Below, piece by piece: positions 41,456-62,099 of a stretch of DNA of 64,000 nt. The position numbers and the translations under genes were made by a program. This stretch comes from Nitrospiria bacterium (GTDB taxonomy: Bacteria; Nitrospirota; Nitrospiria; JACQBZ01). Every line of letters begins with the position of its first letter. The first letter of the stretch is position 1. The notes beneath the pieces are model-generated. The model saw only the letters and a list, made by a program, of their open reading frames with translations, ran no database searches and was not told the DNA's origin. The DNA is taken from assembly GCA_035498035.1 (NCBI GenBank), contig DATKAN010000025.1:145190-209189 (forward strand). The letters are read 5' to 3'.

Positions 41456-41877
41456 ACGGCCCGGCAGATCGTGTTTCGGAAGACGCCGAGCTGTCCCATC
41501 TTCACTGATTTCCGTTTTCAAGCACCCGGAAATTTAACCCACGAAACGATCGGGATCGCCTTGGCCATGGCTCGGGTTCAGATTGAACCGAGCGCTTGGT
41601 CCGGCGGTCCATGCCGGGCGGGCCTAAAAGGCATATTTTACCAAAATTATCAACTCGTAATATTACTAGTCGGTAACTTACCGTGTAAAAACAAGGGTCG
41701 GACGAATGTCGCCTCCTGTTTCCTGCAACGGCCTTGTTTCCCAACTACCCTAAGTAACACTACGGAGGCTTGGCGCATTGACTTAAGAGCGATACAAAGG
41801 ATACCATGGATGCAACCCATGGATCTGTAATCGCAGCCGTGGCCGACGGTTCTTCCCTTCGGCTCGTTTAGGCCCGG

Positions 41878-44196: not shown

Positions 44197-44818
44197 ACCC
44201 GCCACGGTGTTTCTAATCGATGACGACGCCTCCGTGCGGCGGGCGTTGACGCGACTCATCACGTCCGCCGGCCATCAGGTGCGGCCCTTTGCCTCGGCGC
44301 GCGAATATCTGGACAGCGGTCCTCATGGCGGCGGTCCGGCCTGCCTGGTGCTCGACGTTCGTCTGCCCGGCCTCAGCGGGCTGGACCTCCAACGCGAACT
44401 TCGGACGGCCAAGACCCCCCACCCTGTTATTTTTATCACCGGCCACGCGGATGTTCCGATGAGCGTGAAGGCGATGAAGGAGGGGGCGGTCGATTTTATT
44501 CCCAAGCCGGTTCGGGATGAGGACCTTCTGCGCTCCATCGAACAGGCGATGACCCGGGCCGAACGGGAAAGCGCGGAACGGGCCGAGATCGAGGCCCTTC
44601 AAGATCGCGCCCACCGCTTGACCCCGCGCGAGCGCGAGGTGATGGCCCTGGTCGTGAGAGGCCTGCTCAATAAACAAATCGCCTTCGAACTCGGCACCGC
44701 CGAAAAAACCGTCAAAGTCCACCGGGCGCGCGTGATGCAGAAAATGCAGGTCCAATCGCTGGCCGAACTCGTGCGCGTCACGGAGAAGATCGGCCTTCCG
44801 CCAAGACCCGCTTCGTAA
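44183..44818 (+). CDS. Response regulator, FixJ/LuxR family (REC plus HTH_LuxR)
   Basis: MDNPKPATVFLIDDD...VLDVRLPGLSG...TGHAD receiver domain and a C-terminal LTPREREVMALVVRGLLNKQIAFELGTAEKTVKVHRAR. Start taken as the TTG at 44183, overlapping the kinase stop by 14 nt. An in-frame ATG at 44084 would overlap by 113 nt. Confidence 0.7.
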   Translation: MDNPKPATVFLIDDDASVRRALTRLITSAGHQVRPFASAREYLDSGPHGGGPACLVLDVRLPGLSGLDLQRELRTAKTPHPVIFITGHADVPMSVKAMKEGAVDFIPKPVRDEDLLRSIEQAMTRAERESAERAEIEALQDRAHRLTPREREVMALVVRGLLNKQIAFELGTAEKTVKVHRARVMQKMQVQSLAELVRVTEKIGLPPRPAS

Positions 44819-44922
44819 TCCTCCCCCTTTCGATCCATTGGACCAAGGTCCCATATCCACCCATCCCGTTTTTCATTAGAATAAGCCCCCTGTAATCCAT
44901 GGAGTGAACGAACCTGTTTCGG

Positions 44923-45336
44923 GTGGACTGCGCGGGGTTCCTCTTGAGCCAAACCAAGCCTCTGATCGCCGTTGTGGATGACGATGTATCCGTCTGTCGC
45001 GCGCTGGAGCGGCTGCTGCACTCGCTGGGGATGAACACACATACCTTCGCCTCCGGCGGCGAGTTCCTCGATTTCATTCATGCCATGCCGTCGTTTCATC
45101 CGGACTGCGTCCTCCTCGACCTGCATATGCCCGGGTTGAACGGCCTGGATGTGCAGGAACAACTGACCCGGGACCACAGTCCGCTTTCCGTCATTTTCAT
45201 CACCGCCTATGACGAGGCCGTCACCCGGGATCGGGCGCTGGAGGGAGGCGCGGTCGCCTTTTTGCGCAAACCGTTCAGCGATGAGACCTTGATTAAGGCA
45301 TTGAACGAAGCGATTCAGAGGAGATCGGGACAATGA
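44923..45336 (+). CDS. Stand-alone receiver (REC) domain protein, translationally coupled to the decarboxylase gene
   Basis: IAVVDDDVSVCRAL...CVLLDLHMPGLNG...FITAYDE...FLRKPF receiver pattern with no output domain. Stop overlaps the next start (ATGA). TTG at 44944 (MSQTKPLIAVVDDD) is an alternative start. Confidence 0.6.
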   Translation: MDCAGFLLSQTKPLIAVVDDDVSVCRALERLLHSLGMNTHTFASGGEFLDFIHAMPSFHPDCVLLDLHMPGLNGLDVQEQLTRDHSPLSVIFITAYDEAVTRDRALEGGAVAFLRKPFSDETLIKALNEAIQRRSGQ

Positions 45337-48149
45337 AAAGCAAAAACGAGACATCGGAGGCCATGAAACGAACGGGTCCGGCGGTGGCGGGCGAGGCCTC
45401 CGCCGATTCCCCGTCCATTGACCTGAGGGATTTCTTCACGGCTTCGGAAGCGCGCGTGGACCGGTGGCGCAGCCTTCACCGTCTCGCAAAAGAATTGGCG
45501 GAATCAACCGGGTCCAAGACCGAGCCATTAAAAACGGAGGCCGCCGACCTCCTCGCGGCGATGGAGCCGATCGAGGACCTTTGCGGTTTCCCCGGCCCCC
45601 GGCTCATGGAGCATCTGCACGACCGGATCCGAACCGGTGACTGGACCGGATTCCTGCGCCTCGTGCAGCGTATCAGTTTCGCCTTGCTTGCCAACAGCTA
45701 CCGGGACGATCCCGAGGCTTGGAAACTCGAAGACGAGGGCGAAGTCCACGCCCCGGACATTCTCCCGCCGTCCATCGGACGCGGTCAGAGCCGCCGCCCG
45801 TATTTTGAGATCCTCATGGTCTCGCCCGGCGAACGCTCCACCTGGCCGGAGCTTCGTGAGATGTTCCGGAGAATCCGACGGGAGCACGACGAATTCATCT
45901 ACGAGCCGGTGATCGTCGGCAGTCTCGAGGATGCGCTTCTGGCCGTTATTTTCAACTACAACCTCCAGGCGGTCGTGATCAGCGACGGCTTCGGGTTCGC
46001 CTCCCAGTACTCGGTGCCCGTCCTGCGGGAAATTCTTCAGCAGCAGGTCCCGATCGATGAGGCCGCACGCACCGGCGATCTTGGCGCGACCCTGTCCCGC
46101 CTAATCCGCCGTGTGCGACCCGAAATGGACATCTACCTTGTCACCGACCGCAACGTGGGCAAGTTGGCGGGGTCCGACGAGGCCGCCTCGATCCGACGGG
46201 TCTTTTACGGCGTCGAGGAGCCGATGGAGATCCATTTGAGCATCCTCGAAGGGATCAAGGAACGCTACACCACGCCGTACTTCGACAACCTCAAACGCTA
46301 TGCGCAACGCCCGATCGGCACGTTTCACGCCCTGCCGATCGCACGCGGCAAGTCGATCTTCAAGTCGAACTGGATTCGCGACATGGGTGAATTCTACGGC
46401 GCAAACCTCTTTCTTGCGGAATCCTCCGCCACCACCGGCGGGCTCGACAGTCTCCTCGAGCCCACGGGCAACATCAAACTCGCCCAGGATGCCGCGGCGC
46501 GCGCCCTCGGCGGCGACCGCAGCTTTTTTGTCACCAACGGCACCTCCACCTCCAACAAGATCGTCCACCAGGCGTTGGTACGACCCGGAGACATCGTACT
46601 GATCGATCGCGACTGTCACAAGTCCCACCACTACGGGACGGTGCTGGCCGGCGCGCAGCCCCTCTACATCGACGCCTATCCGCTCACGCAGTATTCGATG
46701 TACGGCAGCCTCGCGATCAAACCGATTAAGCAGGCACTGCTGCGGCTCAAGGCCGAAGGCAAGCTCGACCGGGCCAGAATGCTTGTGCTCACCAATTGCA
46801 CCTTCGACGGGCATGTCGCCAACGTGAAGCGCACGATGCTCGAATGCCTCGCCATCAAACCGGACTTGATCTTTCTCTGGGACGAGGCCTGGTTCGGCTT
46901 CGCCCGCTTCTCGCCGTTTTTGCGTCGGAGAACCGCGATGGGCGCCGCGGCCGATCTGCGCGCCATGATTCGGGACCCGGAGTACCGCAAACGGTATGAG
47001 GAGTTCAAGAAACAAGCGGGCGAGCTCGACCCCAAGGACCCGCGTCTTCTCGATATGTCCCTGTTGCCCGACCCGGACAAGGTCCGGCTTCGGATGTACG
47101 AGACCGACTCGGTGCATAAATCCATGTCCTGTCTGCGTCAGGGATCGATCATCGTGGTCGCCGATCAGGACTTCCACAAGGTCGAAGCGGCTTTCAAGGA
47201 GGCCTTCTTCACACACACATCGACCTCGCCCAACCTCCAGATCATCGCCTCCATCGACGTGGCGCGGCGGCAGATGGAATTGGAAGGCTACGAGCTCGTG
47301 GGGCGCGCCACGCAGCTCGCGATCGAGATGCGGCGCGAGATCAACAGCCATCCGCTCATCTCCAAATACTTCCGCGCCGCGACACCGGCCGATATGATCC
47401 CGGCCGAATACCGCCGCTCGGGCATGGCGGACTACGGGGCGCCGGGTTGGACCATGACGGACACGATCAAGGCGCTCGACGACGATGAATTTTTCCTGGA
47501 CCCGAGTCGCATTACCTTGCTGTGCGGAAACGCCGGCTACGACGGGACACAGTTCAAGGCCCTGTTGTCGAGTGATTACGACATCCAGATCAACAAGACC
47601 TCGCGAAACAGCGTGCTGGTGCAGATCAACATCAACAATAACCGAAGCGATCTGGCGCACCTCATCAAGGCCCTGGCCGAGATGGCGCGCACGATCGACA
47701 AGCGGCTGCAGGAGGGGGGCGAATCGGAGCGCGCGGCCTTCCAGGCGCGTGTCAAGTCCCTGGTGGAGGACGTGCCCGACATGCCGGACTTCAGTGGTTT
47801 CCATGACGCCTTCCGCGAAGACCCGAAGAGCGCCACAAAGGAAGGGCATATCCGGGACGCCTACTACATGGCCTACGACGCCGCGAACTGCGAGTACATC
47901 AAGCTCAACAGCCAGGAGATCGACGATCGGCTGAAGAACGGACCGCCCTTGGTCTCGGCCAAATTCGTGATCCCATACCCGCCCGGCTTCCCGATCATGG
48001 TGCCGGGCCAGGTGATCACGCAGGAGACGATCACGTTCATGCGGAAGCTGGACGTGAAGGAGATTCACGGTTTCAACGCCGTCAAGGGTCTCGAACTGCT
48101 TAAAGCCGATGCGCTGGCCAGACATAAGGCCAAGGCCGCCGAACTATAG
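45333..48149 (+). CDS. Orn/Lys/Arg decarboxylase family protein (fold-type I PLP, inducible-decarboxylase-like), long form with a ~150-aa N-terminal extension
   Basis: FVTNGTSTSNKIVHQALVRPGDIVLIDRDCHKSHHYG aligns with the LdcI/AdiA block FVVNGTSTANKIV...ILIDRNCHKS. PLP-Lys motif SVHKSM. A wing-like region precedes the PLP domain. 938 aa. Confidence 0.75.
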   Translation: MKSKNETSEAMKRTGPAVAGEASADSPSIDLRDFFTASEARVDRWRSLHRLAKELAESTGSKTEPLKTEAADLLAAMEPIEDLCGFPGPRLMEHLHDRIRTGDWTGFLRLVQRISFALLANSYRDDPEAWKLEDEGEVHAPDILPPSIGRGQSRRPYFEILMVSPGERSTWPELREMFRRIRREHDEFIYEPVIVGSLEDALLAVIFNYNLQAVVISDGFGFASQYSVPVLREILQQQVPIDEAARTGDLGATLSRLIRRVRPEMDIYLVTDRNVGKLAGSDEAASIRRVFYGVEEPMEIHLSILEGIKERYTTPYFDNLKRYAQRPIGTFHALPIARGKSIFKSNWIRDMGEFYGANLFLAESSATTGGLDSLLEPTGNIKLAQDAAARALGGDRSFFVTNGTSTSNKIVHQALVRPGDIVLIDRDCHKSHHYGTVLAGAQPLYIDAYPLTQYSMYGSLAIKPIKQALLRLKAEGKLDRARMLVLTNCTFDGHVANVKRTMLECLAIKPDLIFLWDEAWFGFARFSPFLRRRTAMGAAADLRAMIRDPEYRKRYEEFKKQAGELDPKDPRLLDMSLLPDPDKVRLRMYETDSVHKSMSCLRQGSIIVVADQDFHKVEAAFKEAFFTHTSTSPNLQIIASIDVARRQMELEGYELVGRATQLAIEMRREINSHPLISKYFRAATPADMIPAEYRRSGMADYGAPGWTMTDTIKALDDDEFFLDPSRITLLCGNAGYDGTQFKALLSSDYDIQINKTSRNSVLVQININNNRSDLAHLIKALAEMARTIDKRLQEGGESERAAFQARVKSLVEDVPDMPDFSGFHDAFREDPKSATKEGHIRDAYYMAYDAANCEYIKLNSQEIDDRLKNGPPLVSAKFVIPYPPGFPIMVPGQVITQETITFMRKLDVKEIHGFNAVKGLELLKADALARHKAKAAEL

Positions 48150-48218
48150 AGCGGCCAGAGCTGCAAAAATCACTAAGGCCGGCCTGGTATGCCGATGGCG
48201 GGTCGAGAAAGGAGCTTT

Positions 48219-49901
48219 ATGGAATGGCTGATCGAGACATTTAAACATTATCCGGAGCTGGCGATTTTTCTCACGCTGGCCCTGGGGTATTGGGTGGGCG
48301 GGCTCAAGTTCGGCACCTTTTCCCTGGGCGCGGTCACCGGGACGCTTCTGGTGGGCGTCGTCGTGGGGCAGATGCAGATCACGATCTCCCCACAAGTAAA
48401 ATCGGTTTTCTTTCTCATGTTTCTTTTCGCCGTTGGCTACGGCGTCGGCCCGCAGTTCGTCCGCGGCCTGAAGAGCGACGGCCTCCCTCAGGTGATCTTC
48501 GCCGTCCTCCAGTGCGTGGCCTCGCTGCTGACGGTCTTAATTGTCGCGAAGCTGTTCGGCTACAACGTCGGCCTGGCGGCCGGTCTCCTCTCCGGATCCC
48601 AGACCATTTCGGCGGTGCTCGGCGTGGCCACGGACGCGATCAACCGTCTTGGGATCTCAACGGAGGACAAGGAGAAGCTCATCAATGCCATGCCGGTTGC
48701 CTACGCCGTGACCTACATCTTCGGCACGGCCGGGTCGGCATGGGTCCTGGCCTCTATCGGGCCGAAGATCCTTGGAGTGGATCTTCCGGCCGAATGTAAA
48801 AAGCTGGAAGAGAAGATGGGTGCGGGCGGGGAAACCGAGCCCGGAGTCATATCTGCGGCCCGGCGCTTCGATGTGCGCGCCTACCGTGTGACCAACCCGA
48901 ATCTGGTGAACAGGACCGTTGCGGAGCTTGAGGCCCTTCCCAAGGAGGCCCGCGTTTTTATCGTCCGGGTCCGCCACGCAGGCGCGATCATCGAGGCCGA
49001 GCCCGCCACCGTGATTCATCAGGACGACGTGGTCGCCGTAACAACCCGACAGGAGATTCACGTCGAGCGTGGAACCGCCATCGGCCCGGAGGTGGACGAC
49101 AAAGCCCTGCTCGATTTTCCGGTGACATTGCTCGATGTGGTGATGACGAACAAATCGCTCGCCGGAAAGACCTTGGCGGAGTTGGCGGCCTCCGAGAACG
49201 CCCGCGGGGTGTTTTTGCGGAAGCTGATGCGAAGCGGCCTGGAGATGCCGTTAACCCCTGGAACCCAGGTCGATCGCGGCGACGTGCTGACTCTTGTCGG
49301 CGCCAAGCGTGATGTCGACCGTGTGGCCAAGGAGATTGGCTACGCCGACCGGCCGACCAACATGACGGACATGGTCTTCGTGGGAGCCGGGATCGTTCTG
49401 GGGGGCTTGGTGGGCGCCATGGCGATCAACATCGGTGGCGTCCCATTGAGTCTCACTACAAGCGGCGGCTCGCTCATCGCGGGCCTGATCTTCGGATGGC
49501 TCCGGTCCGTGTACCGGACCTTCGGCCGCGTTCCAGAACCCGCCCTCTGGATGATGAATTCGGTGGGGCTCAATACCTTCATTGCCGTGGTCGGGATCAG
49601 TTCCGGACCGGCCTTCGTGCTTGGACTCAAAAATGCCGGAGTGAGTCTATTCCTGGCGGGGATCATTACGACCACGGTCCCGCTGGTGATCGGGGTCCTG
49701 CTCGGCAAGTACGTGTTCAAGTTTCACCCGGCGATTACGCTGGGCGCCGCCGCAGGCGCACGAACTACGACCGCGGCTCTCGGCCTTATTCAAGACGCGG
49801 CGAAGAGCAAGACGCCGGCTCTCGGCTACACCGTGACCTACGCCGTGGGCAACATACTGCTCATCACCTGGGGGCTCGTGATTGTGTTGTTAATGACGTA
49901 A
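48219..49901 (+). CDS. Aspartate:alanine exchanger (AAE) family transporter (AspT/YidE/YbjL-like), copy 1
   Basis: Duplicated TM domains around two central TrkA_C/RCK_C-like cytoplasmic domains. N-terminal ELAIFLTLALGYWVGGLKFG is characteristic of the family. Start at the Met after AAAGGAG. Confidence 0.8.
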   Translation: MEWLIETFKHYPELAIFLTLALGYWVGGLKFGTFSLGAVTGTLLVGVVVGQMQITISPQVKSVFFLMFLFAVGYGVGPQFVRGLKSDGLPQVIFAVLQCVASLLTVLIVAKLFGYNVGLAAGLLSGSQTISAVLGVATDAINRLGISTEDKEKLINAMPVAYAVTYIFGTAGSAWVLASIGPKILGVDLPAECKKLEEKMGAGGETEPGVISAARRFDVRAYRVTNPNLVNRTVAELEALPKEARVFIVRVRHAGAIIEAEPATVIHQDDVVAVTTRQEIHVERGTAIGPEVDDKALLDFPVTLLDVVMTNKSLAGKTLAELAASENARGVFLRKLMRSGLEMPLTPGTQVDRGDVLTLVGAKRDVDRVAKEIGYADRPTNMTDMVFVGAGIVLGGLVGAMAINIGGVPLSLTTSGGSLIAGLIFGWLRSVYRTFGRVPEPALWMMNSVGLNTFIAVVGISSGPAFVLGLKNAGVSLFLAGIITTTVPLVIGVLLGKYVFKFHPAITLGAAAGARTTTAALGLIQDAAKSKTPALGYTVTYAVGNILLITWGLVIVLLMT

Positions 49902-49925
49902 TAACAAAGAGAGGAGAATCCTACG

Positions 49926-51575
49926 ATGGCCATCAAATCATCAAAGTCGACCACCTCACGCGCCGAACAACGTGAGCTGCTAAAGCTGAGTCCCTTTGAG
50001 CTCAAGGACAAGCTCATTACCTTGGCCGCCGAGAGCGAACGGGAGAGCGATTTACAGATGCTGAACGCCGGGCGCGGCAACCCGAACTGGATCTGCACCA
50101 CGCCGCGGGAGGCTTTCGGAACTCTGCTCCAGTTCGGCATCGAGGAATCGCGGCGCGGTATTAACATACCGGATGCCGGTCGCATGCCCCAAAAGAACGG
50201 CATCGCGGGACGCTTCACATCTTTTCTCGAATCCCATAAGGAGGCTCCCGGGGCCGAGCTCCTCCGCGCCTCCTTCGATTACGGGACCAAAACGCTGAAC
50301 TTCGACCCGGATTCATTCGCGCACGAACTCGCCGAGAGTATCATCGGCTGCATGTATCCCGTGCCGGACCGTATGCTGCGATGCACCGAGCGGATCGTGC
50401 ACGAATACCTGGTCCGGGAGCTGTGCGCCGGCAAGCCGCCCGCCGGCCGCTACGACCTGTTCGCCGTCGAGGGCGGGACGGCCGCGATGTGTTACATCTT
50501 CGATTCGCTGATGCTCAACCGCCTGCTGCACCGCGGCGACACCGTCGCGCTCGGGATCCCGACCTTCACGCCCTACATCGAGATCCCTCACTTCGACCGC
50601 TATGCCTTCAAGGTGGTGAACATCGACGCCGGCTCCGAACAACGTCCCGACGGCAGCCATTCCTGGCAATATACCGACAAGGAAATCGACAAGCTCGCGG
50701 ACAAGCGGATCAAGGCGTTCTTCCTGGTCAATCCGAGCAACCCGCCCTCCTACGCCATGCGCCAAAGCACCGTGAAGCGGCTCGTCAAAATCGTGAAGAG
50801 CAAACGGCCCGACCTGATCATCATCACCGACGACGTCTACGGCACCTTCGTGCCCGGCTTCCGGTCGTTGATGGCCGAATTGCCGCAGAACACCATCGGC
50901 GTCTATTCCTATTCAAAGCATTTCGGATGCACCGGCTGGCGGCTCGGGGTCGTGGCAATTCACCAGAACAATATCTTCGACAAGATGCTGGGGAAACTGT
51001 CCTCCAAGGATCGCGCCGCGCTCAACCGCCGTTACGGCAGCATCTCGCTCGCGCCGGAGAAGCTGAAGTTCATCGACCGGATGGTCGCCGACAGCCGGCA
51101 GGTCGCGCTCAACCACACCGCCGGCCTGTCGATGCCCCAGCAGATCCAGATGGCCCTGTTCTCCCTGTTCGCGATCCTCGACACGGCCAACAGCTACAAG
51201 ACGCTTTGCCAGCTCGTCGTGCGCCGGCGTTTCAAGGCGCTGTGGGACGGGCTGAACCTCCCGTCGCCCCCTGAGGAAGACCGGGCCTCCTATTACGCCG
51301 AACTCGACCTCATGGTCTGGGCCGAAAAGGAATACGGTCCCGAGTTCGTGAAATTTCTCCGGAAGAACTACGAATGCACGGACGTCCTGTTCCGTCTCGC
51401 GGAGCAGTCGGGCGTCGTGCTTCTGCACGGCGGCGGATTTGGCGGGCCGGAATGGTCGGTCCGCGTATCGCTCGCCAATCTGCCGGAGGAAACCTATCCG
51501 AAAATCGGCCGGTACCTCAGGCAGGCGGCCGAGGGCTACGTTAAGGAATGGAAGGCGTCGCAAAAAAACAAGTAG
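49926..51575 (+). CDS. asdA: Aspartate 4-decarboxylase (bifunctional aspartate aminotransferase / L-aspartate beta-decarboxylase)
   Basis: ~549 aa class-I aminotransferase fold with PLP-Lys in YSYSKHFGCTGWRLGV. Its length and N-terminal extension match AsdA rather than ordinary AspC. Adjacent to an AspT-family exchanger, as in known aspD-aspT systems. Confidence 0.75.
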   Translation: MAIKSSKSTTSRAEQRELLKLSPFELKDKLITLAAESERESDLQMLNAGRGNPNWICTTPREAFGTLLQFGIEESRRGINIPDAGRMPQKNGIAGRFTSFLESHKEAPGAELLRASFDYGTKTLNFDPDSFAHELAESIIGCMYPVPDRMLRCTERIVHEYLVRELCAGKPPAGRYDLFAVEGGTAAMCYIFDSLMLNRLLHRGDTVALGIPTFTPYIEIPHFDRYAFKVVNIDAGSEQRPDGSHSWQYTDKEIDKLADKRIKAFFLVNPSNPPSYAMRQSTVKRLVKIVKSKRPDLIIITDDVYGTFVPGFRSLMAELPQNTIGVYSYSKHFGCTGWRLGVVAIHQNNIFDKMLGKLSSKDRAALNRRYGSISLAPEKLKFIDRMVADSRQVALNHTAGLSMPQQIQMALFSLFAILDTANSYKTLCQLVVRRRFKALWDGLNLPSPPEEDRASYYAELDLMVWAEKEYGPEFVKFLRKNYECTDVLFRLAEQSGVVLLHGGGFGGPEWSVRVSLANLPEETYPKIGRYLRQAAEGYVKEWKASQKNK

Positions 51576-51647
51576 TGCGGGGAACCCACAGAGAAAATAT
51601 CCATCGACCGGCCGAAATGATCCGGCCAAACAAAAGGAGGAAAAACC

Positions 51648-52715
51648 GTGAGACAGCATCCAATAAAAATGATCCTGCCGATCCTGGTGTTCCTGCTGGC
51701 GCTCGCGCCCGCGGCCTACGCCAAGCCCAAGATCGTGCTGTTGGCGACTGGGGGCACCATTGCCGGCGTGCAACCGGGCCCGAACGATCCCGGCTATAAG
51801 GCCGGCGAGGTTTCGGTGGACCAGCTCATCAAGGCCGTGCCGCAGTTAAAAGATATGGCCGACATCAGCGGCGAGCAGATCGCCAGCATCGGCAGTCAGA
51901 CCATGACCAATGACGTCTGGCTGAAACTCGCGGACCGGGCCAATGCGGTGCTGAAGCAATCCGATGTGACCGGGGTGGTGATCACCCATGGGACCGATAC
52001 GTTGGAGGAGACCGCTTACTTCCTCAGTCTCGTGGTGAAGAGCGACAAGCCGGTGGTGCTGGTCGGATCGATGCGACCCTCCACGGCCATCGGAGCGGAC
52101 GGTCCGGCCAACCTGTTCGAGGCGGTGGCGCTGGCGATAAACCCCGAGGCCAGGGGGCGCGGGCCGTTGATCGTCCTCAATGACGAGATCCACTACGCGC
52201 GCGAGGCCGAGAAAACCAACAGCACCGAACTCAACACTTTTAAATCCCCAAACCGCGGCCGCGCGGGTGTGATGAACACGGGAATCGCGCACTTCTTTTT
52301 CCCGAACAGCGTGCGCCACACCACGAAAAGCCAGTTCTCGGTGGATGGCGTGAAGCCTGAGGATCTGCCCCGGGTCGAGATCGTCTACTCCTATGCCAAC
52401 TTCGGACGCGACACGATCGATTTCCTGGTCCAGAAAGGCGTCAAGGGGATCGTGCTGGCCGGCGTGGGTGACGGCAATACGACCGATACGGCGATGGCGG
52501 GTCTTGTCGACGCGGCGAAGAAGGGTGTGGCCGTGGTCCGTGCGACGCGCACCGGCAGCGGGATCGTCGCACGAAATATCGAGGTGAACGACGACAAGCT
52601 GGGTCTGATCGCATCGATGGAATTAAACCCGCAGAAGGCAAGGATCTTATTGATGTTGGGGTTGATGCAGACCAAGGACCCGAAGAAACTCCAGGAACTG
52701 TTCTACGCCTATTGA
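51648..52715 (+). CDS. ansB: L-asparaginase type II (periplasmic)
   Basis: Signal peptide, TGGTIAG threonine active-site motif, and a second conserved HGTDT block. Confidence 0.85.
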   Translation: MRQHPIKMILPILVFLLALAPAAYAKPKIVLLATGGTIAGVQPGPNDPGYKAGEVSVDQLIKAVPQLKDMADISGEQIASIGSQTMTNDVWLKLADRANAVLKQSDVTGVVITHGTDTLEETAYFLSLVVKSDKPVVLVGSMRPSTAIGADGPANLFEAVALAINPEARGRGPLIVLNDEIHYAREAEKTNSTELNTFKSPNRGRAGVMNTGIAHFFFPNSVRHTTKSQFSVDGVKPEDLPRVEIVYSYANFGRDTIDFLVQKGVKGIVLAGVGDGNTTDTAMAGLVDAAKKGVAVVRATRTGSGIVARNIEVNDDKLGLIASMELNPQKARILLMLGLMQTKDPKKLQELFYAY

Positions 52716-52929
52716 TAGGGGCTTGCGTCGCCCCCTCCATCCGCCTCAAGCGGACTGGAGCCTCCCCCTCTCGCTCGCCTTGCTCGCTGGGTGGATCATC
52801 ACGGGCGGCGCAGGCAAGAGGACACCGCTTTCGGGCGGGAGTAAATGAAGTTTTGCGCGAAGCGCGGCGCAATGAGTATCACGGGCTTGCCCGTGGGTAT
52901 CTATCAATCGATAAGGGAACGCGAACGTC

Positions 52930-54621
52930 ATGATCGAGTGGTTCGTCTCGGCCTTGCGCAGCAACCCGGAGCTGGCGCTCTTTCTGTCGATCGGCCTGGG
53001 GTTCTGGATCGGGTCGTGGAAGCTCGGCCAATTCAGCCTGGGCGGCGTCACCGGTTCACTGCTCGCCGCGCTGTTGGTCGGCCAATTGAATGTCGAGGTT
53101 CCGGGTCTCGTCAAGACCGTGCTGTTCATGCTGTTCCTGTTCGGGACCGGTTATTCGGTCGGGCCGCAGTTTTTTCGTTCTTTGAAGGGGGACGGCCTGC
53201 GTTCGCTGGCCTTCACGATCGTGCACTGCGGGGCGGGGCTCGCCGTGGCCTATTTCATGGCGCGACTCCTTGGGCTGGACCTCGGCCTTTCGGCCGGCCT
53301 GCTCTCGGGCGGTCTGACCCAATCGGCCGCTATCGGAACCGCGACCGAGGCGATTATGGCGCTCCCGCTTCCGGATGCCGAGCGGCAGATGCTCGTCAGT
53401 CACATCGCCGTGGCGGATGCGCTGTCCTATTTGTTCGGCGTGGTGGCGCCCATCGTGTTCCTGGGTTCCATCGCGCCGCGAATGATGGGCATCGATCTCA
53501 AGGCCGAGGCGGCAGCGTTCGAGTCGAAGCTCGGGATCAAACGTGTCGCCCCCAATGTCACCTCGGCCTACCAGCGCTTTGCCTTCCGCGCACACCGCGT
53601 CGAAAGCGCCGAGGTCATCGGGAAGCGCGCGACCGAGGTGGAGGTGATCCGGCCGGACGGACGGATGTTCGTCGAGCGGCTGCGTCGAGGGGACCGGATC
53701 ATTCCTGTCGGTCCGGACACACGCGTCGAGCGGGGCGACATCCTCGTCCTCTACGGACGCCGGGAGGTGGTCCTGGAGGTCGGGCCGCGCCTCGGCCCCG
53801 AGGTCGACGACCCGGAGCTGCTCGATTTCCCGATTGAGGTCGCCAGGGTCGTCGTGACAAACCCCGAAATCACGGGACGGAGCTTCAGCGAGCTGGCCAG
53901 CTGGCCGCCGGCCCGCGGGGTAGGCGTCCGATCGGTCACACGCGGCGGCCAGGAAATCCCGATCTCCCCTGAAACCGTCATGGATCTCGGAGACGTGATA
54001 GAGCTGGTCGGACCGCAGCCCACGGTGGAACGCGCCGCGCGGGAGATCGGACAGGTTGAAATCCCCACGGCCAGCACCAACCTCATGCTCCTCGGCATCG
54101 GGATTGTAATCGGCGCGTTCGTCGGGCTGCCCTATCTCATGCTGGGGTCCTTAAAACTGTCGCTGACGACCAGTGTCGGGGTGTTGCTGGCCGGTCTGTT
54201 CTTCGGCTGGTTCTACTCGGTGAAGCCGGCGCTCGGGAAGATTCCAGACGCCTCGGTCAACCTCATGACCCAGCTCGGGCTGGCCGGATTCGTCGCCGTG
54301 GTCGGCCTGCATGCGGGGCCGATCTTCATCGATGCGGTGCGCGACGCCGGCCCGCGGCTTCTGCTCGGCGGCGCGGTGGTCACGTCGGTTCCACTGCTCG
54401 TGGCCTTCGCGTTCGGGCGCTATTTTCTGCGGATGCATCCGGTGCTTTTGATCGGCGCCATGGCCGGCGGCCAGACCCTGACCCCGGCGCTCGTCGCGAT
54501 CCAGGAGAAGGCCGAAAGCCAGACGCCGGTCCTGGGTTATACCGTGCCGTATGCGCTGGCCAACATACTGCTCACCATGTGGGGCACCTTCATGGTGCTG
54601 TTGCGATCACAGTTTGGATAA
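52930..54621 (+). CDS. AAE family transporter (AspT/YidE/YbjL-like), copy 2
   Basis: Paralog of the gene at 48219, with the same architecture and N-terminal pattern (ELALFLSIGLGFWIGSWKLG). Confidence 0.8.
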   Translation: MIEWFVSALRSNPELALFLSIGLGFWIGSWKLGQFSLGGVTGSLLAALLVGQLNVEVPGLVKTVLFMLFLFGTGYSVGPQFFRSLKGDGLRSLAFTIVHCGAGLAVAYFMARLLGLDLGLSAGLLSGGLTQSAAIGTATEAIMALPLPDAERQMLVSHIAVADALSYLFGVVAPIVFLGSIAPRMMGIDLKAEAAAFESKLGIKRVAPNVTSAYQRFAFRAHRVESAEVIGKRATEVEVIRPDGRMFVERLRRGDRIIPVGPDTRVERGDILVLYGRREVVLEVGPRLGPEVDDPELLDFPIEVARVVVTNPEITGRSFSELASWPPARGVGVRSVTRGGQEIPISPETVMDLGDVIELVGPQPTVERAAREIGQVEIPTASTNLMLLGIGIVIGAFVGLPYLMLGSLKLSLTTSVGVLLAGLFFGWFYSVKPALGKIPDASVNLMTQLGLAGFVAVVGLHAGPIFIDAVRDAGPRLLLGGAVVTSVPLLVAFAFGRYFLRMHPVLLIGAMAGGQTLTPALVAIQEKAESQTPVLGYTVPYALANILLTMWGTFMVLLRSQFG

Positions 54622-54688
54622 AGTCTTAAAGCAGGGTGTAGGTGTGATGTCGAGTTATGGCGAATCACTAACCAGAAAGGAGAAATAT

Positions 54689-55726
54689 ATGGAAAGACCA
54701 AAGTGGCTACACCGCACCGCTGTACTGGTAACGTTCACGGTGGCGGTACTTCTGGTATCGCCGTTCCGGGCGACCGCCGGGGAGGTCTCCACGGATCCCG
54801 CGACCCTCAAACGCCTCGTGCAGGAGGCCTACAACAAGTTCAAGGATGTCAAGGAAGGCAAGCCCGCGGATTACATCCCGGAGCTGGCCAAGGTGCCGGC
54901 CGATCTTTTCGGCGTCGCGATCGTGACGGCGAAGGGCGAAACCTACACCGCCGGCGATGTGGATTATGCCTTCACCATCCAATCGGTCTCCAAGCCGTTC
55001 ACCGCGGCCCTGGTGATGCAGGAGCAGGGCAGCGAAGCGATCCTGGACAAGATCGGCGTCGAGCCGACCGGCCAGAAGTTCAACTCCATCCTCGCGACAC
55101 AGATTATTCCGCAGGTGTCGGTCAACCCGCTGGTCAATTCCGGCGCGATCGCGGCGGTCAGCATGGTCAAGGCGAAGTCGGCCGAGGATCGTTTCAACAA
55201 GATCCTCGATTTTGAAAATCGCCTCTCGGGGGCCAAGCTTAAGGTGATCGAGGATGTCTACAAGTCCGAGGCGGCTACCAACCAGCGAAACCGGGCCCAC
55301 GGCTACATCCTGTTCGCTTCGGATCGCATCTATTCCGATCCGATGGAGGCGGTGGACGTCTACACCCGGCAATGCTCCATCGGCGTGACCGCAAAGCAAC
55401 TCGCGGTGATGGGCGCCACGCTGGCGGACGACGGCATGAACCCGATCACCAAGGAGCGGGTCCTGGATGCGAGGTACGTTCCGAAGGTGCTCGCCATCAT
55501 GATGATGGCCGGTTTTTATAATGAGTCGGGGAAATGGGCCTACACGGCGGGACTGCCGGCCAAGACCGGTGTCGGGGGCGGTATTGTCGCGGTCGTGCCG
55601 GGCAAAATGGCGATCGTCGGCTTCTCGCCGCGCGTGAACGATGCCGGGAACAGCGTGCGCTCCGCCAAGGCGATCGAATACATCGCCGAGCAGCTGGGCG
55701 CAAACGTGTTCGGCAGCGGACGATAA
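54689..55726 (+). CDS. glsA: Glutaminase (GlsA family), with a signal peptide
   Basis: QSVSKPF serine-nucleophile motif in a serine-beta-lactamase-like fold. N-terminal hydrophobic signal. Start at the Met after AAAGGAG. Confidence 0.8.
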   Translation: MERPKWLHRTAVLVTFTVAVLLVSPFRATAGEVSTDPATLKRLVQEAYNKFKDVKEGKPADYIPELAKVPADLFGVAIVTAKGETYTAGDVDYAFTIQSVSKPFTAALVMQEQGSEAILDKIGVEPTGQKFNSILATQIIPQVSVNPLVNSGAIAAVSMVKAKSAEDRFNKILDFENRLSGAKLKVIEDVYKSEAATNQRNRAHGYILFASDRIYSDPMEAVDVYTRQCSIGVTAKQLAVMGATLADDGMNPITKERVLDARYVPKVLAIMMMAGFYNESGKWAYTAGLPAKTGVGGGIVAVVPGKMAIVGFSPRVNDAGNSVRSAKAIEYIAEQLGANVFGSGR

Positions 55727-55773
55727 ACGTCCGATCGAAATCAATGGGGGACAAATAAATAAAGGAGCCAAAC

Positions 55774-56970
55774 ATGATTAAACGATACGCAATCATTTTC
55801 GCATTGACGTTTAGCCTTTTTGCCGCAGGACTGGCCTCCACTTCCGCTGCGAAAGCGGCGGGACCGGAATTAAATTTCTACGGGTTTGTCCAATTGGATG
55901 CCATTTATGATGTAAACACGGTCGATCCCAATTGGAAGGCCGCCTTGCGTCCTTCCAAGATCCCGGTGAATTGTCCTGGCGGAACAGCGAATGACCCAGG
56001 ATGCGGGAAGGATGGCAATACCACCTTCAGCGTCCGGCAGTCGCGTTTTGGTGTTACGGGCGACTTCCCGACCTCCGCGGGTGAGCTGCACACAAAGTTC
56101 GAGTTCGACATGTTCGGCGTCGGGGTCGACGAAGGCCAGACCACGATCCGTCTCCGCCATGCCTACGGCGAGATGGGGGCCTTTCTGGCCGGTCAGACGA
56201 ACAGTCTGTTCATGGACGGGGACGTCTTTCCCAACACCATTGAATACTGGGGGCCGGGCGGAATGATCTTCTTCCGGAACATCCAGTTACGATGGACGCC
56301 GATGCGCACCGATCATGCGAAGTTCGCGGTCGCCCTTGAAGGACCCGGGTCCGCAATCGATGTGGGCAACGCCGTCAACCCGGAAGGATGGACGGCCTGG
56401 AATCCTTACCCGGATTTGACCGGGCAGTATCGTGTCAACCAGCCCTGGGGACATGCACAGGTGGCAGGCATCGTGCGATGGCTCGGATACCAGAATCCCG
56501 ACCTAATAAACTTCTCTGGCATCAGCAAGACCTCCGGACACGTTCTCGGCGGCGGCATCAATCTGAGCGGAAGCCTCAATACCCACGGCAAGGACAAGAT
56601 TATGGCGCAGTTGGCCTATGGAAAGGGCATCGCGAACTACTTCAATGACTGCTGCACGGATGTGGCCCCCAACTCGTCCCTTTCAAAGGGCCAGGCGGTG
56701 CCGCTGCTTGGGTGGCTTTTGTACTACGATCATTACTGGAATGAAAAGTGGAGCAGCTCCATCGGATACAGCGGCCAGAATCAAAACAATTCCGGCGGAC
56801 AGGCCGACAATGCCTTCAACAACGGATCCTACGCCTCGGGGAACCTGCTTTTTTACCCGGCGAAAGGGGTCATGACGGGCGCGGAGATCCTTTGGGGCCA
56901 ACGCGAGAACAAGAACGGGAACAAGGGCGATGACACGCGCGTGCAGTACTCGGTGAAGTACGATTTTTAA
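55774..56970 (+). CDS. Outer-membrane porin-like beta-barrel protein (DcaP-like)
   Basis: Signal peptide MIKRYAIIFALTFSLFAAGLASTSAAKA, alternating beta-strand pattern and a C-terminal ...VKYDF (terminal Phe). Confidence 0.5.
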   Translation: MIKRYAIIFALTFSLFAAGLASTSAAKAAGPELNFYGFVQLDAIYDVNTVDPNWKAALRPSKIPVNCPGGTANDPGCGKDGNTTFSVRQSRFGVTGDFPTSAGELHTKFEFDMFGVGVDEGQTTIRLRHAYGEMGAFLAGQTNSLFMDGDVFPNTIEYWGPGGMIFFRNIQLRWTPMRTDHAKFAVALEGPGSAIDVGNAVNPEGWTAWNPYPDLTGQYRVNQPWGHAQVAGIVRWLGYQNPDLINFSGISKTSGHVLGGGINLSGSLNTHGKDKIMAQLAYGKGIANYFNDCCTDVAPNSSLSKGQAVPLLGWLLYYDHYWNEKWSSSIGYSGQNQNNSGGQADNAFNNGSYASGNLLFYPAKGVMTGAEILWGQRENKNGNKGDDTRVQYSVKYDF

Positions 56971-56982
56971 CCCAGGCTCAAG

Positions 56983-57015
56983 GGGCCTGTTCCTGACCGG
57001 GATCGGGCAGGCCCC
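56983..57015 (+). terminator. Candidate terminator hairpin after the porin gene
   Basis: ggggcctg ... caggcccc 8-bp GC stem, followed by GTCTGTCG. U-tract is weak. Confidence 0.3.
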
Positions 57016-57054
57016 GTCTGTCGAAGGTGGGGTTCGTGCACGCATGGAGAGTGG

Positions 57055-57714
57055 ATGAAGGTTTTTCTACATCACTTCGGTCATGTGTTTGCGGCGCTTT
57101 TTCCGGTGATCAATCCCCCGGGCATGGCCTTGCTTTTTATTGCGATGACCCGACGCGCGGGGCGGGCCCAGCGAATTATTCTTGCGGGACGGATTGCCTT
57201 CTACGCGTTTATCATCATCAACGTGTCGTATTATGTCGGGACTTTTCTTCTCGATTTTTTTGACATATCGTTGCCGGTGCTTCGTGTGGCCGGGGGAATC
57301 GTGCTCGCCTCCTCCGGCTGGCGGCTTTTAAACGAAACCCGATCGGCGAGCGAGACCGGCATGGAGATCGGCGGGGGTTCGGGGGATTGGGCCCAAATGG
57401 CGTTTTATCCCTTGACGATGCCGATCACGACCGGCCCCGGAACGATTTCGGTGACGATCGCGATGGGCGCCATACTTCCGAGGACCATTCCGGTCATGCT
57501 AGGGGCCCTGGCGGCGAGCATGACCGTATCGGCGGCCATTTACCTTTGCTACCGGTATGCGGACCGGATCGAAGGGAGGCTGGGGAAGACGGGCTCCGAA
57601 GCGCTGTCCCGACTCTTCGCCTTCATTCTGGTCTGCATCGGAGTGCAGATCTTGTGGAACGGAATTTCTGAGCTGTGGGGGTCGCTGCCCCCCCAATTAC
57701 CGGCAGGGCCATAG
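57055..57714 (+). CDS. marC: MarC family (UPF0056 / NAAT) integral membrane protein
   Basis: LFPVINPPGMALLF N-terminal motif and six TM helices, ~219 aa. Confidence 0.75.
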   Translation: MKVFLHHFGHVFAALFPVINPPGMALLFIAMTRRAGRAQRIILAGRIAFYAFIIINVSYYVGTFLLDFFDISLPVLRVAGGIVLASSGWRLLNETRSASETGMEIGGGSGDWAQMAFYPLTMPITTGPGTISVTIAMGAILPRTIPVMLGALAASMTVSAAIYLCYRYADRIEGRLGKTGSEALSRLFAFILVCIGVQILWNGISELWGSLPPQLPAGP

Positions 57715-57742
57715 ACGGAGGTTTGACGATTTCGGCGAAAAA

Positions 57743-58324
57743 ATGAAGAACATGATGAAAATAAGTCGCGGCATTAATATGGCATACGGTCTCAAAATCT
57801 CTGCCTGGGCCGGAATTGGCTTATTGTTGACCTCCCTTCCGGAATCCGCATGGGCCATGACGGGGCCCTTCGTCGACACGCTGGCGGATATCCTGACCAT
57901 CGTGGTCCTCCTATTTGTTCCCGTTGTCGGAATTTATTTATTCTGGATGGTCCATATCCTTCCCGAAAAAATCGCCGAGAAGCGTCATCACCCCCAGAAG
58001 GAGGCGATCAAAATCCTCTGCATCCTGTCGTTAGTCTTCGGCGGGATGCTTTGGCCGCTCGCCTGGCTCTGGGCCTACTCAAAACCCGTACTGCACAAGA
58101 TGGCCTACGGGACCGACAAACACGAGGATTACTACCTGGAAAGCGAAGGCGAGGCCGAGGCGCCGGCCGGCGACACGGGCGAGGCGGTCGCCCGACTTCG
58201 CCTGGCCATCGGTCAACTGGCCGCAAAAGGCGTACCCGCCGAGGAGCTCGAGTCCCTTAAGCGCGAGCTGGCCGAGATCGAGGAAACATTAGCGCGGATG
58301 AAAACCCGCCAGGGAGAAGTCTGA
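57743..58324 (+). CDS. DUF3302-like small membrane protein (YibI-like) preceding the HlyD-family gene
   Basis: Two TM helices and an acidic, coiled-coil C-terminus. Its position directly before the HlyD-family gene matches yibI-yibH-type pairs. Confidence 0.5.
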   Translation: MKNMMKISRGINMAYGLKISAWAGIGLLLTSLPESAWAMTGPFVDTLADILTIVVLLFVPVVGIYLFWMVHILPEKIAEKRHHPQKEAIKILCILSLVFGGMLWPLAWLWAYSKPVLHKMAYGTDKHEDYYLESEGEAEAPAGDTGEAVARLRLAIGQLAAKGVPAEELESLKRELAEIEETLARMKTRQGEV

Positions 58325-59280
58325 TGGAACTCCTATTGGTAGGCATTTATTCATTTTTCGTCTGGATTATTTTCTTCAAGCTCAAGTGGCTGCCCTGGAA
58401 CACGACCTCGCAGGTGGTGGTCGTCACCATTCCGATCGTCGGGCTCGCCACCCTGATCCTCTTGCTCAACGTCGTCGCCCCATCGTCACACGACGTGCGC
58501 GTGATCAAGTACGTGGTGCAGGTTATGCCTCAAGTGCGAGGCCGTGTGATCGAGGTGCCGGCCGAGGGCAATCGACCGATGAAGAAGGGTGACGTGCTGT
58601 TCAAGATCGATCCCACCCCGTTCGAGATCGACGTCCGGCGCATCGAGGCGCAACTTTCCCTGGCCCAGACGCGGCTCAGGCAGTCGCGCGACCTCGCGAA
58701 GACCGGCGCGGGAAGCAAATTCGACGAGGAGCGTTATGAAAGCGACGTGCGACAACTCCAGGCGCAACTGGATCAAGCGCGCTGGGACCTGTCGCAAACG
58801 ACGATGTATGCGCCGGCGGACGGCTCGGTCATCAACCTGCAGCTTCGGGTCGGTTCGTTCGTCGTGCCGTTTCCAATTGTGCCGGCGATGAGCTTTGTCG
58901 AAGACGAGTATCAGGTGATCGCGCTCTACCATCAGAACGAGCTGCACGAGGTGGAGCCGGGCAACGAAGTGGAAATCGCTCTGCCGACCTATCCCGGCCG
59001 GATCATCAAGGGGAAGGTCGACTCCATCGTCTGGGCCCAGGGACAGGGTCAAGTTCCAATGAGCGGGACGATCCCTCAGACGGGACCTATTCCTCCGCCG
59101 GAGGGACGCTTCCCGGTGAAGATCGATCTCGAGGAGAAGGACCGGGCCCTCTTTCTGGCGGCCGGGGCATTGGGCAGCGCGGCGATCTATACCCATCATG
59201 TAGAACCGATCCATATTCTCCGCAAGGTGATACTGCGCGTGGGTTCCTACACCAACTACCTCGTCCTGAAGCTTCATTAG
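58324..59280 (+). CDS. HlyD-family membrane fusion protein (EmrA/YibH-like)
   Basis: N-terminal TM, GDVLFKIDPTPFEIDV lipoyl/biotinyl-like hairpin, a coiled coil, and a C-terminal beta domain. Confidence 0.75.
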   Translation: MELLLVGIYSFFVWIIFFKLKWLPWNTTSQVVVVTIPIVGLATLILLLNVVAPSSHDVRVIKYVVQVMPQVRGRVIEVPAEGNRPMKKGDVLFKIDPTPFEIDVRRIEAQLSLAQTRLRQSRDLAKTGAGSKFDEERYESDVRQLQAQLDQARWDLSQTTMYAPADGSVINLQLRVGSFVVPFPIVPAMSFVEDEYQVIALYHQNELHEVEPGNEVEIALPTYPGRIIKGKVDSIVWAQGQGQVPMSGTIPQTGPIPPPEGRFPVKIDLEEKDRALFLAAGALGSAAIYTHHVEPIHILRKVILRVGSYTNYLVLKLH

Positions 59281-62085: not shown

Positions 62086-62099
62086 AGGACCCCATTATA

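Follow-up and report, generated by a model that had tools for sequence, protein, structure and literature searches.

Gene content and organization of the island

The window analyzed here is a 64,000-nucleotide stretch of a 224-kb contig from the metagenome-assembled genome (MAG) of a Nitrospiria bacterium (proteins HTN43193-HTN43206 in the public record), and our subject is a gene island at positions 44923-57714 that brings together two amino acid decarboxylases, two transporters of the aspartate:alanine exchanger (AAE) family and two amidases. Among named organisms, Candidatus Manganitrophus sp. SB1 is the closest relative at this locus. The nine open reading frames (ORFs), all on the + strand and at the coordinates first listed for them, encode in order a stand-alone receiver (REC) protein, a 938-aa decarboxylase, a first exchanger (AAE1), the aspartate 4-decarboxylase AsdA, the asparaginase AnsB, a second exchanger (AAE2), the glutaminase GlsA, a DcaP-family porin and MarC. 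Domains of the window proteins were assigned by Pfam and NCBIfam profile searches, which recovered OKR_DC_1, AAE, AsdA, type II asparaginase and glutaminase, and the nine co-oriented genes with the domains attributed to them in a preliminary description of this DNA are all recovered.

The genes are separated by gaps of -4, 39, 24, 72, 214, 67, 47 and 84 nt, the largest of which lies between ansB and AAE2. A sequence scan detected no terminator-like site in any intergenic gap of the island, and because the terminator-like matches on the + strand are all intragenic and the promoter-like matches around the island do not rise above background, transcription units cannot be assigned. An Rfam scan of 41000-58500 (E <= 0.1) gave no match, a repeat search found no flanking direct or inverted repeats of the mobile-element kind, and the composition of the island is not distinct from its surroundings.

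A long-form decarboxylase of the Rv2531c family

The second gene of the island (45333..48149, + strand; HTN43199) codes for a fold-type-I pyridoxal phosphate (PLP) decarboxylase of 938 aa, which gives a Pfam OKR_DC_1 match (E 2e-65) and which an alignment to the PDB entries 9n0n/9n0o places in the long-form, four-domain Rv2531c family. It displays the characteristic architecture of about 900-950 aa, with N-terminal helical, receiver-like, PLP catalytic and C-terminal domains; its residues 38-933 align to residues 23-906 of 9n0n_A in a single alignment (E 4e-221), and it shares 44% identity with Mycobacterium tuberculosis Rv2531c over 877 aa. In a 2026 study, Rv2531c was characterized as a long four-domain 'KOR' form that acts as an Mg2+-dependent L-glutamate decarboxylase in vitro and in vivo, is inactive on Lys, Arg and Orn, and makes most of the gamma-aminobutyric acid (GABA) of M. 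tuberculosis (PMC13506015); structures are available as 9N0N/9N0O/9N0P (PMC12329521).

In Rv2531c, H405, K406, T606, R576 and N731 are proposed to position PLP and the glutamate carboxylates, with R576 as the proposed gamma-carboxylate-binding Arg and R718 as a second Arg that is missing from lysine decarboxylase (PMC13506015). Six of the seven active-site residues that we checked are kept in the window enzyme, where H405/K406/K570/R576/T606/N731 correspond to H429/K430/K596/R602/T631/N754, and these six, the PLP lysine K570 among them, do not vary across 81 aligned sequences, the window included. R718 corresponds to Lys742, and is a Lys in all 80 environmental homologs, with retention of the positive charge. 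Because of the full-length homology to Rv2531c, the most plausible prediction for the 938-aa protein is L-glutamate decarboxylase activity (Glu + H+ -> GABA + CO2). The catalytic core of these decarboxylases is unusually conserved across phyla.

While the placement of the protein in a decarboxylase family is confirmed, its earlier assignment to the Orn/Lys/Arg (Ldc/Adi-like) enzymes is probably wrong. On that assignment it would be a basic amino acid (Arg/Lys/Orn) decarboxylase, an independent polyamine or acid-resistance enzyme standing beside an AsdA/AspT operon, as its OKR_DC_1 match and the 'arginine decarboxylase' names of JGI homologs might suggest. We consider this very improbable: the protein scores 145-178 bits against NCBIfam Ldc/Adi/Odc models with cut-offs of 794-1310, and thus falls far under every one; Lys, Arg and Orn are not substrates of the sole characterized member of the long-form clade; the Arg equivalent to R576 is invariant; no basic amino acid/polyamine antiporter of the APC family is present; and adjacency to anion-type AAEs is kept even where AsdA is absent.

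AsdA, two putatively exported amidases, a porin and MarC

The 549-aa product of the fourth gene (49926..51575, + strand; HTN43201) gives full-length matches to both AsdA models, NF006755 (790.7 bits; cut-off 321) and TIGR03801 (785.8 bits; cut-off 435.1), and is predicted to catalyze Asp + H+ -> Ala + CO2. Scores so far above the cut-offs rule out an ordinary aspartate aminotransferase and bear out the original identification as AsdA; PGAP names the protein a bifunctional aspartate transaminase/aspartate 4-decarboxylase.

AnsB (51648..52715, + strand) is a type II, i.e., periplasmic, L-asparaginase (TIGR00520, 410.5 bits; cut-off 314.3) with the TGGTIAG and HGTDT catalytic motifs and an N-terminus, MRQHPIKMILPILVFLLALAPAAYA followed by KP, that forms a classical Sec-type signal peptide; it lies below the stricter E. 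coli AnsB equivalog NF008304 (407 vs 506). The second amidase (54689..55726, + strand; NF009020, 457.7 bits, cut-off 395) is a glutaminase A of the YbaS/GlsA1 type with an N-terminal export signal. Its start is most likely at 54689 (MERPKWLH..., 345 aa) and not at 54551, where the ORF was listed; the 345-aa sequence is identical to the public glutaminase A record HTN43204. Among PDB structures it comes closest to E. coli YbaS (1u60, E 2e-92), whose residues 4-308 pair with 37-341 of the window protein, and the catalytic Ser-x-x-Lys motif is present as QSVSKPF. Relative to cytoplasmic E. coli YbaS, it features an N-terminal extension of 33-36 residues with a hydrophobic core and an A-x-A-like site, and all five cluster-linked GlsA orthologs, those of four other loci included, show a similar hydrophobic extension. 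Accordingly, the signal peptides first noted on both amidases hold up, and we predict that the window GlsA, unlike YbaS, is exported rather than cytoplasmic. Several exported GlsA orthologs (L001, L028 and L030 of the census below) carry a Tat-like Arg-Arg pair before the hydrophobic core (LRRTVVL, WRRSLLL, VRRAAFLF), and the window GlsA (54689-54790) has His-Arg at this place.

The remaining two genes encode membrane proteins. The porin (55774..56970, + strand) is a DcaP-family trimeric outer-membrane channel with a signal peptide (PF19577, E 1e-24, 87.9 bits against a gathering score of 27, the match covering only positions 67-252 of the 410 in the profile), and is named 'DcaP family trimeric outer membrane transporter' by PGAP. 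MarC (57055..57714, + strand) is an inner-membrane protein of the MarC/NAAT family and a candidate neutral amino acid transporter (PF01914, E 1e-41, 143 bits; TIGR00427, 128.7 bits, cut-off 99.2), which falls narrowly below the E. coli MarC equivalog NF008228 (151 vs 162). MarC also ends the cluster in L001, L086, L088 and L090 and, independently, in Falsiroseomonas bella (L097).

A widespread core and a rare amidase-bearing version

We scanned one genome per species with the window decarboxylase and retained the best 80 loci (58-84% identity), which come from Methylomirabilota/Rokubacteria, Acidobacteriota, Burkholderiales, Binatia, Verrucomicrobiota, Myxococcota, Planctomycetota and other lineages, with cultured Cupriavidus and Arenimonas among them. 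Four further contexts came from exact-protein look-ups, and the census, including the window, comprises 85 loci. Neighbors were detected by tblastn/blastp with the window proteins, and a locus was counted as informative when its sequence ran on for 6 kb or more downstream of the decarboxylase (58 loci). An AAE transporter stands beside the decarboxylase in 56 of these and immediately downstream of it in 42; AsdA is present in 38, two or more AAEs in 33 and a DcaP-like porin in 27 (32 of all 85 loci, with OprD porins in a further tally of 19/85), while GlsA is found in four, AnsB in three and MarC in one.

The core of long decarboxylase, AAE, usually AsdA, and often a second AAE and a porin is widespread, and carries only automatic names in public records ('arginine decarboxylase', 'aspartate-alanine antiporter'). 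The version with two secreted amidases is rare: both occur together in Ca. Manganitrophus SB1 (L001), the same-lineage metagenome contigs L085-L094 and the betaproteobacterial loci L028 and L083, and secreted GlsA is encoded in L001, L028, L030, L083 and the L086-L093 contigs. The preliminary description had presented two amidases and two AAEs in one locus as unreported and had called for a co-occurrence search; that search singles out the two-amidase extension, which is confined to few loci, but shows an asdA/AAE core that recurs across phyla and is common.

Within the lineage of the window, the eight genes from the decarboxylase to MarC stay together in three flanking contexts: next to a kinase-FixJ-REC set (window, L085), behind a Phenol_MetA_deg outer-membrane protein (L001) and behind unrelated genes (L086, L090). 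A metagenome scan with AAE2 returned seven contigs, all of this same lineage, which confirm the synteny and add no reciprocal information. A fortuitous neighborhood, in which functional genes lie side by side with neither functional coupling nor co-regulation, could be argued from the 214-nt ansB-AAE2 gap and from promoters and terminators that cannot be assigned with confidence. It is hardly credible given that 10 or more contigs of the lineage preserve the gene order across these three contexts, that the ansB-AAE2 gap shrinks to about 25 nt in L086 and L090, that the core is conserved across phyla, and that the REC and decarboxylase genes are translationally coupled and the other gaps short; chance juxtaposition is far outweighed by the synteny conserved in many genomes.

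The ancestry of the island is mosaic. Rokubacteria and Sulfurifustis have copies of the decarboxylase with 79-84% identity to that of the window (L007 and L029 compared), and the AsdA-to-GlsA block is closest to the betaproteobacterial L083 (AsdA 88%, AAE2 79%, GlsA 81%), whose decarboxylase is only 61% identical. Two AsdA-less clusters are found in cultured organisms: in Falsiroseomonas bella (L097 524-10920), a DcaP porin, the decarboxylase, an AAE, the Na+/glutamate symporter GltS (E 4e-84), a second AAE, one further gene and MarC; and in Bordetella bronchialis (L095 1649-9698), RND, OEP, the decarboxylase and two AAEs.

AsdA of Pseudomonas and Comamonas is usually regarded as catabolic, which counts toward an alternative in which the island is a nutrient-scavenging operon: the amidases would harvest NH4+, the AAEs would be net importers of Asp and Glu, and AsdA and the long decarboxylase would direct the carbon to Ala/pyruvate and the GABA shunt; neither export of the products nor a bioenergetic role would be involved. 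Coupling of a periplasmic deamidase to a transporter for nutrition is reportedly known in Helicobacter. Further anion transporters (DASS, GltS) occur in related clusters, and Rv2531c itself is documented as the entry enzyme of the GABA shunt (PMC13506015). We nevertheless judge scavenging unlikely. The recurrent neighbors in the 85 loci include no family for GABA or alanine catabolism (gabT/gabD, alanine dehydrogenase or transaminase), which favors product export; AAE1 belongs to the exchanger equivalog; strict adjacency of decarboxylase and exchanger is a hallmark of precursor/product antiport systems; and the closest named relative belongs to a genus of Mn-oxidizing chemolithoautotrophs, for which the catabolism of amino acid carbon is no obvious need.

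Other recurrent neighbors of the cluster encode secreted proteins of unknown function (DUF3300 at 11 loci, DUF2950 at 14 and DUF4136 at 10) or transporters, of the DASS anion type at 13 loci and of the AI-2E family at nine; example sites are L002 16190-19177, L034 6371-7723, L065 4668-5666 and L055 19200-19775.

Two exchanger types and their predicted partners

Both AAEs display two Asp-Al_Ex halves with central TrkA_C (RCK_C) domains, and both exceed the cut-off (546.95) of the AspT equivalog TIGR03802, AAE1 (48189..49901, + strand) with 693.9 bits and AAE2 (52930..54621, + strand) with 600.2 bits. AAE1 lies 24 nt upstream of asdA, and AAE2 is parted from it by ansB. AspT is an electrogenic Asp(1-):Ala(0) exchanger (PMC9508256, PMC12462496). 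We compared 101 full-length AAEs from the loci, which fall into several subclades, with the substrate-contact residues of Tetragenococcus halophilus AspT (PMC12462496), using 13 L-Asp contact or gate residues (F66, F69, M70, T130, Q131, S132, Y163, Y167, L431, F434, T496, S498 and Y524). AAE1 matches ten of these, with the changes M70L, Q131I and S498T, and AAE2 likewise ten, with M70L, Y163D and S498T, of which Y163D is clade-specific. Position 131 is thus Q in AspT, I in AAE1, Q in AAE2 and M in AAE clade 3.5, and position 163 is Y, Y, D and Y in the same order, with Y524 common to all four.

The residue pattern follows the gene neighborhood. A large AsdA-linked clade shares I131/Y163 with the window AAE1, and I131-type AAEs are present in 35 of 37 AsdA-containing loci as against two of 19 AsdA-less ones (Fisher p = 3e-10, a value that ignores kinship). 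AAEs of other than the I131 type accompany the decarboxylase in 16 of the 19 AsdA-less loci, and a third clade with M131, which at 382 bits scores below the AspT cut-off, is confined to such loci. D163 is found in 25 of 25 locus copies of the AAE2 clade and in 113 of 114 aligned database homologs. When AAE2 homologs of about 50% identity were sampled reciprocally in five contexts, both proteins with the Q131/D163/Y524 signature adjoined a long decarboxylase, one of them in the AsdA-less setting of Bordetella bronchialis; of three sampled E131/D163/V524 AAEs, one lies in the Falsiroseomonas bella decarboxylase cluster.

There is hence good support for the prediction that AAE1 is an Asp:Ala exchanger partnering AsdA, and moderate support for the prediction that AAE2, a candidate Glu:GABA exchanger, serves the long decarboxylase. 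We also considered whether the decarboxylase is simply partnered by the AAE that directly follows it, and rejected this: in AsdA-containing loci that slot is usually occupied by the AsdA-linked I131 type.

At the other two sampled sites (L096 8001-11109 and L099 6346-11149), the E131/D163/V524 AAE adjoins a class-II lyase (Lyase_1/FumaraseC_C, aspartase- or fumarase-like) with no decarboxylase, and the L099 locus also holds an OprD porin. This AAE-lyase pairing may be a different AAE-based module, e.g., one for aspartate/fumarate.

Regulators and the region upstream of the island

The first gene of the island (44923..45336, + strand) encodes the REC-only protein of 137 aa (Response_reg, E 1e-26), which retains the canonical DDD pocket, the phospho-acceptor Asp (LLDLHMPG), the Thr (FITAY) and the Lys (RKPF). 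Its stop codon overlaps the decarboxylase start as ATGA at 45333-45336, with a GGAG-type ribosome-binding site upstream; the sequence thereby confirms the translational coupling noticed at the outset. Further upstream on the + strand are a sensor histidine kinase (41878..44196) with a solute-binding-protein-like domain (PF04392, ABC_sub_bind), PAS_3, HisKA and HATPase_c, and a FixJ/LuxR-type response regulator (44183..44818, the start being approximate, by analogy with the 211-aa call in L085) with REC and GerE helix-turn-helix domains. The nearest solved relatives of the kinase sensor domain are the PF04392 binding proteins 6hni, 3lkv and 3lft.

The kinase-FixJ-REC-decarboxylase arrangement recurs in the close relative L085, with the same 4-nt overlap, and in Arenimonas daejeonensis (L075). 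The L085 kinase is 78% identical to that of the window; in kinases of other loci the likeness is limited to the PAS, HisKA and HATPase core, and PAS/GAF sensors stand in place of the solute-binding-protein-like one of the window kinase. Orthologs of the FixJ regulator stand beside the decarboxylase in L085 (84%), L075 (49%) and L039 (47%), and a REC-only gene lies directly upstream of it in L085, L075 and L063 (an NC10 genome) and nearby in L039 and L098. In L039, an Akkermansiaceae MAG, kinase, REC and FixJ are all upstream of the decarboxylase, the latter two on the opposite strand. Control by this upstream set, as first proposed, is in keeping with its recurrence at L085 and L075, but the regulators are missing from Ca. 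Manganitrophus SB1 (L001) and from L086 and L090, and because of these loci the link between regulators and decarboxylase is real but facultative. We may speculate that the free REC acts as a phosphate sink or contacts the receiver-like domain of the decarboxylase.

Directly upstream of the kinase, at 34715-41455, is a carbohydrate-metabolism block of about 62% G+C, with genes for phosphoglucomutase, 4-alpha-glucanotransferase, glucose-6-phosphate isomerase, a 6-phosphogluconate-dehydrogenase-like protein and 6-phosphogluconolactonase. Between these pentose-phosphate genes and the kinase, a 119-aa ORF (41471-41830) has no Pfam match and may not be a real gene. The region 28000-34000 has a G+C fraction of 0.54, vs 0.58-0.64 elsewhere in the window, and, besides several short ORFs, encodes a second kinase, which is cytoplasmic and of the PAS-HisKA_3 type (30468-31631).

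Possible extension beyond MarC

Five genes on the + strand downstream of MarC, identified by Pfam matches, could extend the island: those for a DUF3302 membrane protein (57746..58324), an HlyD-type membrane-fusion protein (58324..59280), an outer-membrane efflux protein (OEP; 59284..60795), a polyphosphate kinase 2 (PPK2, E 1e-97; 60776..61585, overlapping the OEP gene by 20 nt) and, after a gap of 376 nt, an MscS-family mechanosensitive channel (61962..63773). The DUF3302-HlyD-OEP trio (46-63% identity) is found beside the decarboxylase in L003, L013, L016, L017, L025, L028, L031 and L082, and directly after MarC in L088; the DUF3302 gene is also present in L049, where the contig ends. PPK2 homologs (62-78% identity) occur in 12 decarboxylase loci, contiguously in L042 and L046, for example, and the window PPK2 is 73-78% identical to copies in Acidobacteriota MAGs (Ca. 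Acidoferrales and relatives). MscS-like channels are encoded in seven decarboxylase loci of other phyla (L002, L003, L042, L044, L046, L053 and L057). The bounds first drawn at 44923-57714 thus enclose the nine genes correctly, but the conserved neighborhood runs past 57714, and the functional unit may be larger than nine genes.

These neighbors lend some color to yet another alternative, a glutamate/osmotic-homeostasis valve in which a low-affinity, cooperative decarboxylase would fire at very high cytoplasmic K-glutamate and an AAE would export GABA, acting together with MscS and the efflux components. Besides the MscS channels at seven loci and the recurrence of PPK2 and efflux genes, the regulatory TrkA_C (RCK_C) domains of the AAEs and the kinetics of Rv2531c toward glutamate (K0.5 about 509 mM, Hill coefficient 4, hysteresis; PMC13506015) would suit such a valve. 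We regard it as quite improbable, since those kinetics come only from a homolog and not from the window enzyme, and the secreted asparaginase and glutaminase, the porin and the tight AsdA/AspT link would be left unexplained.

Two proposed parallel decarboxylation-antiport cycles

Taken together, the island probably constitutes two decarboxylation-antiport cycles that run in parallel on acidic amino acids, with a periplasmic amidase supplying each. The DcaP-type porin would let the substrates across the outer membrane, and in the periplasm the secreted AnsB would convert Asn to Asp + NH3 and the secreted YbaS-type GlsA Gln to Glu + NH3. Asp(1-) would then enter via AAE1 against neutral Ala, generated by cytoplasmic AsdA (Asp + H+ -> Ala + CO2), and Glu(1-) via AAE2 against neutral GABA, generated by the long decarboxylase (Glu + H+ -> GABA + CO2). 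Each turn is predicted to use one cytoplasmic proton and to move one net negative charge inward, so that the cycles would yield proton-motive force and a higher internal pH, with NH3 buffering the periplasm. The genes may be co-transcribed, and their expression in this lineage is probably governed by the upstream kinase and FixJ-type regulator, with the co-translated single-domain receiver as a potential second phospho-acceptor or modulator. Acid tolerance or the generation of proton-motive force would be the physiological role that we infer from analogy with known systems, and the benefit may be protection from acid, supplementary energy or both.

The Asn -> Asp -> Ala logic of the preliminary description holds with the supported identities of AnsB, AAE1 and AsdA, and the homology to the L-glutamate decarboxylase Rv2531c now backs its suggestion of a second decarboxylase/exchanger pair for glutamate. 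The recurrence of glutamate-related genes in the cluster (secreted GlsA, and GltS in F. bella) and the YbaS type of GlsA, as in E. coli glutamine-dependent acid resistance, point in the same direction. Several observations weigh against these paired cycles. The decarboxylase is only 44% identical to Rv2531c, whose K0.5 of ~0.5 M and GABA-shunt role come with no mention of an antiporter (PMC13506015). Both AAEs pass the AspT equivalog model, and AAE2 could carry aspartate too; a single exchanger type accompanies two decarboxylases in 17 of 37 AsdA-containing loci, Bordetella has two AAEs for one decarboxylase, and E131/D163/V524 AAEs lie beside a class-II lyase with no decarboxylase in two of the three contexts sampled. 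Moreover, the co-occurrence counts derive from the 80 best matches to one query and are not phylogenetically independent, and the signal peptides were assigned by visual inspection and by comparison to YbaS rather than by a dedicated predictor.

Relationship to known systems

That a decarboxylase is paired with an antiporter is a textbook principle, and all protein families of the island are already known. The closest functional parallel is offered by the AR2 and AR2_Q systems of E. coli and Brucella (GadA/B, GadC, YbaS/GlsA), which have the same logic of Gln -> Glu + NH3, proton-consuming Glu -> GABA + CO2 and Glu/GABA exchange, and whose glutaminase, decarboxylase and exchanger genes lie together in Brucella and some enterics (PMC3641589, PMC6250119, PMC5695133). 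In contrast to the Gad system, the decarboxylase of the island is a long-form fold-type-I 'KOR' enzyme of the Rv2531c family and not GadB (Pfam group II), its exchanger is of the AAE family and not the APC-family GadC, its glutaminase carries an export signal where E. coli YbaS is cytoplasmic, and it adds an Asp/Ala module, an asparaginase and a porin. A Pfam search with the nine island proteins gave no match to a GadB-type group II PLP decarboxylase or an APC-family GadC, and the island lies outside the Gad system, although it may operate in a similar way.

With the AspD/AsdA-AspT cycle of Tetragenococcus halophilus and Comamonas testosteroni (PMC9508256, PMC12462496), the island shares AsdA and an adjoining AAE, both above their equivalog cut-offs; it differs in that the pair lies downstream of a second decarboxylase and would be supplied by a periplasmic asparaginase, and in the replacement of AspT Q131 by Ile in the AsdA-linked environmental clade. 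M. tuberculosis Rv2531c has the same four-domain architecture, aligned end to end with the window decarboxylase, and six active-site residues in common with it, but the window enzyme is 44% identical, has Lys in place of R718, and has an AAE neighbor like 56 of the 58 related loci. Rv2531c feeds the M. tuberculosis GABA shunt, and the study of it mentions neither an antiporter nor a gene neighborhood (PMC13506015).

Helicobacter pylori offers a further likeness in its periplasmic deamidation of Asn and Gln, followed by Asp/Glu uptake and ammonia release. H. pylori nevertheless has gamma-glutamyl transpeptidase instead of glutaminase A and symporters instead of exchangers, and is not known to have coupled decarboxylases or a clustering of the genes. 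The periplasmic deamidase-transporter couples of this organism, AnsB with DcuA and gamma-GT with GltS, were reportedly described by Leduc et al. in 2010.

We searched the literature for this combination of genes and met no description of it. The pairing of an Rv2531c-type decarboxylase with an AAE, its frequent fusion with AsdA/AspT and a porin, and the amidase-fed version thus appear undescribed in the literature searched.

Implications

We also advance, tentatively and with somewhat less than even confidence, a more general proposal: that in most bacteria Rv2531c-type decarboxylases may be, rather than primarily GABA-shunt enzymes, the catalytic half of an unrecognized antiport system, in which D163/M131 AAEs act as Glu:GABA exchangers and replace GadB/GadC non-homologously. 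This system would commonly be fused to AsdA/AspT and a dedicated porin, the Nitrospiria amidases would turn it into a four-substrate (Asn, Gln, Asp, Glu) proton-consuming engine, and the free REC might act on the receiver-like domain of the decarboxylase. Mn(II) oxidation releases protons, and one may speculate that proton consumption is useful to a Manganitrophus-like organism on this account.

If true, these predictions would provide a physiological context for a newly recognized enzyme family of more than 1,000 sequences, of which only the M. tuberculosis member has been studied, and would add Glu/GABA, together with a residue signature, as a new substrate class for AAE transporters. They would also expose a systematic mis-annotation ('arginine decarboxylase', 'aspartate-alanine antiporter') in thousands of genomes. 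As cultured carriers of the cluster exist, Cupriavidus plantarum and Cupriavidus pinatubonensis among them, the hypothesis is directly testable. Finally, soil and freshwater bacteria of the Acidobacteriota, Methylomirabilota, Burkholderiales and Nitrospirota, including relatives of Mn-oxidizing chemolithoautotrophs, would be endowed with an Asp/Glu decarboxylation machine that does the work of the enteric Gad system with a different set of proteins.

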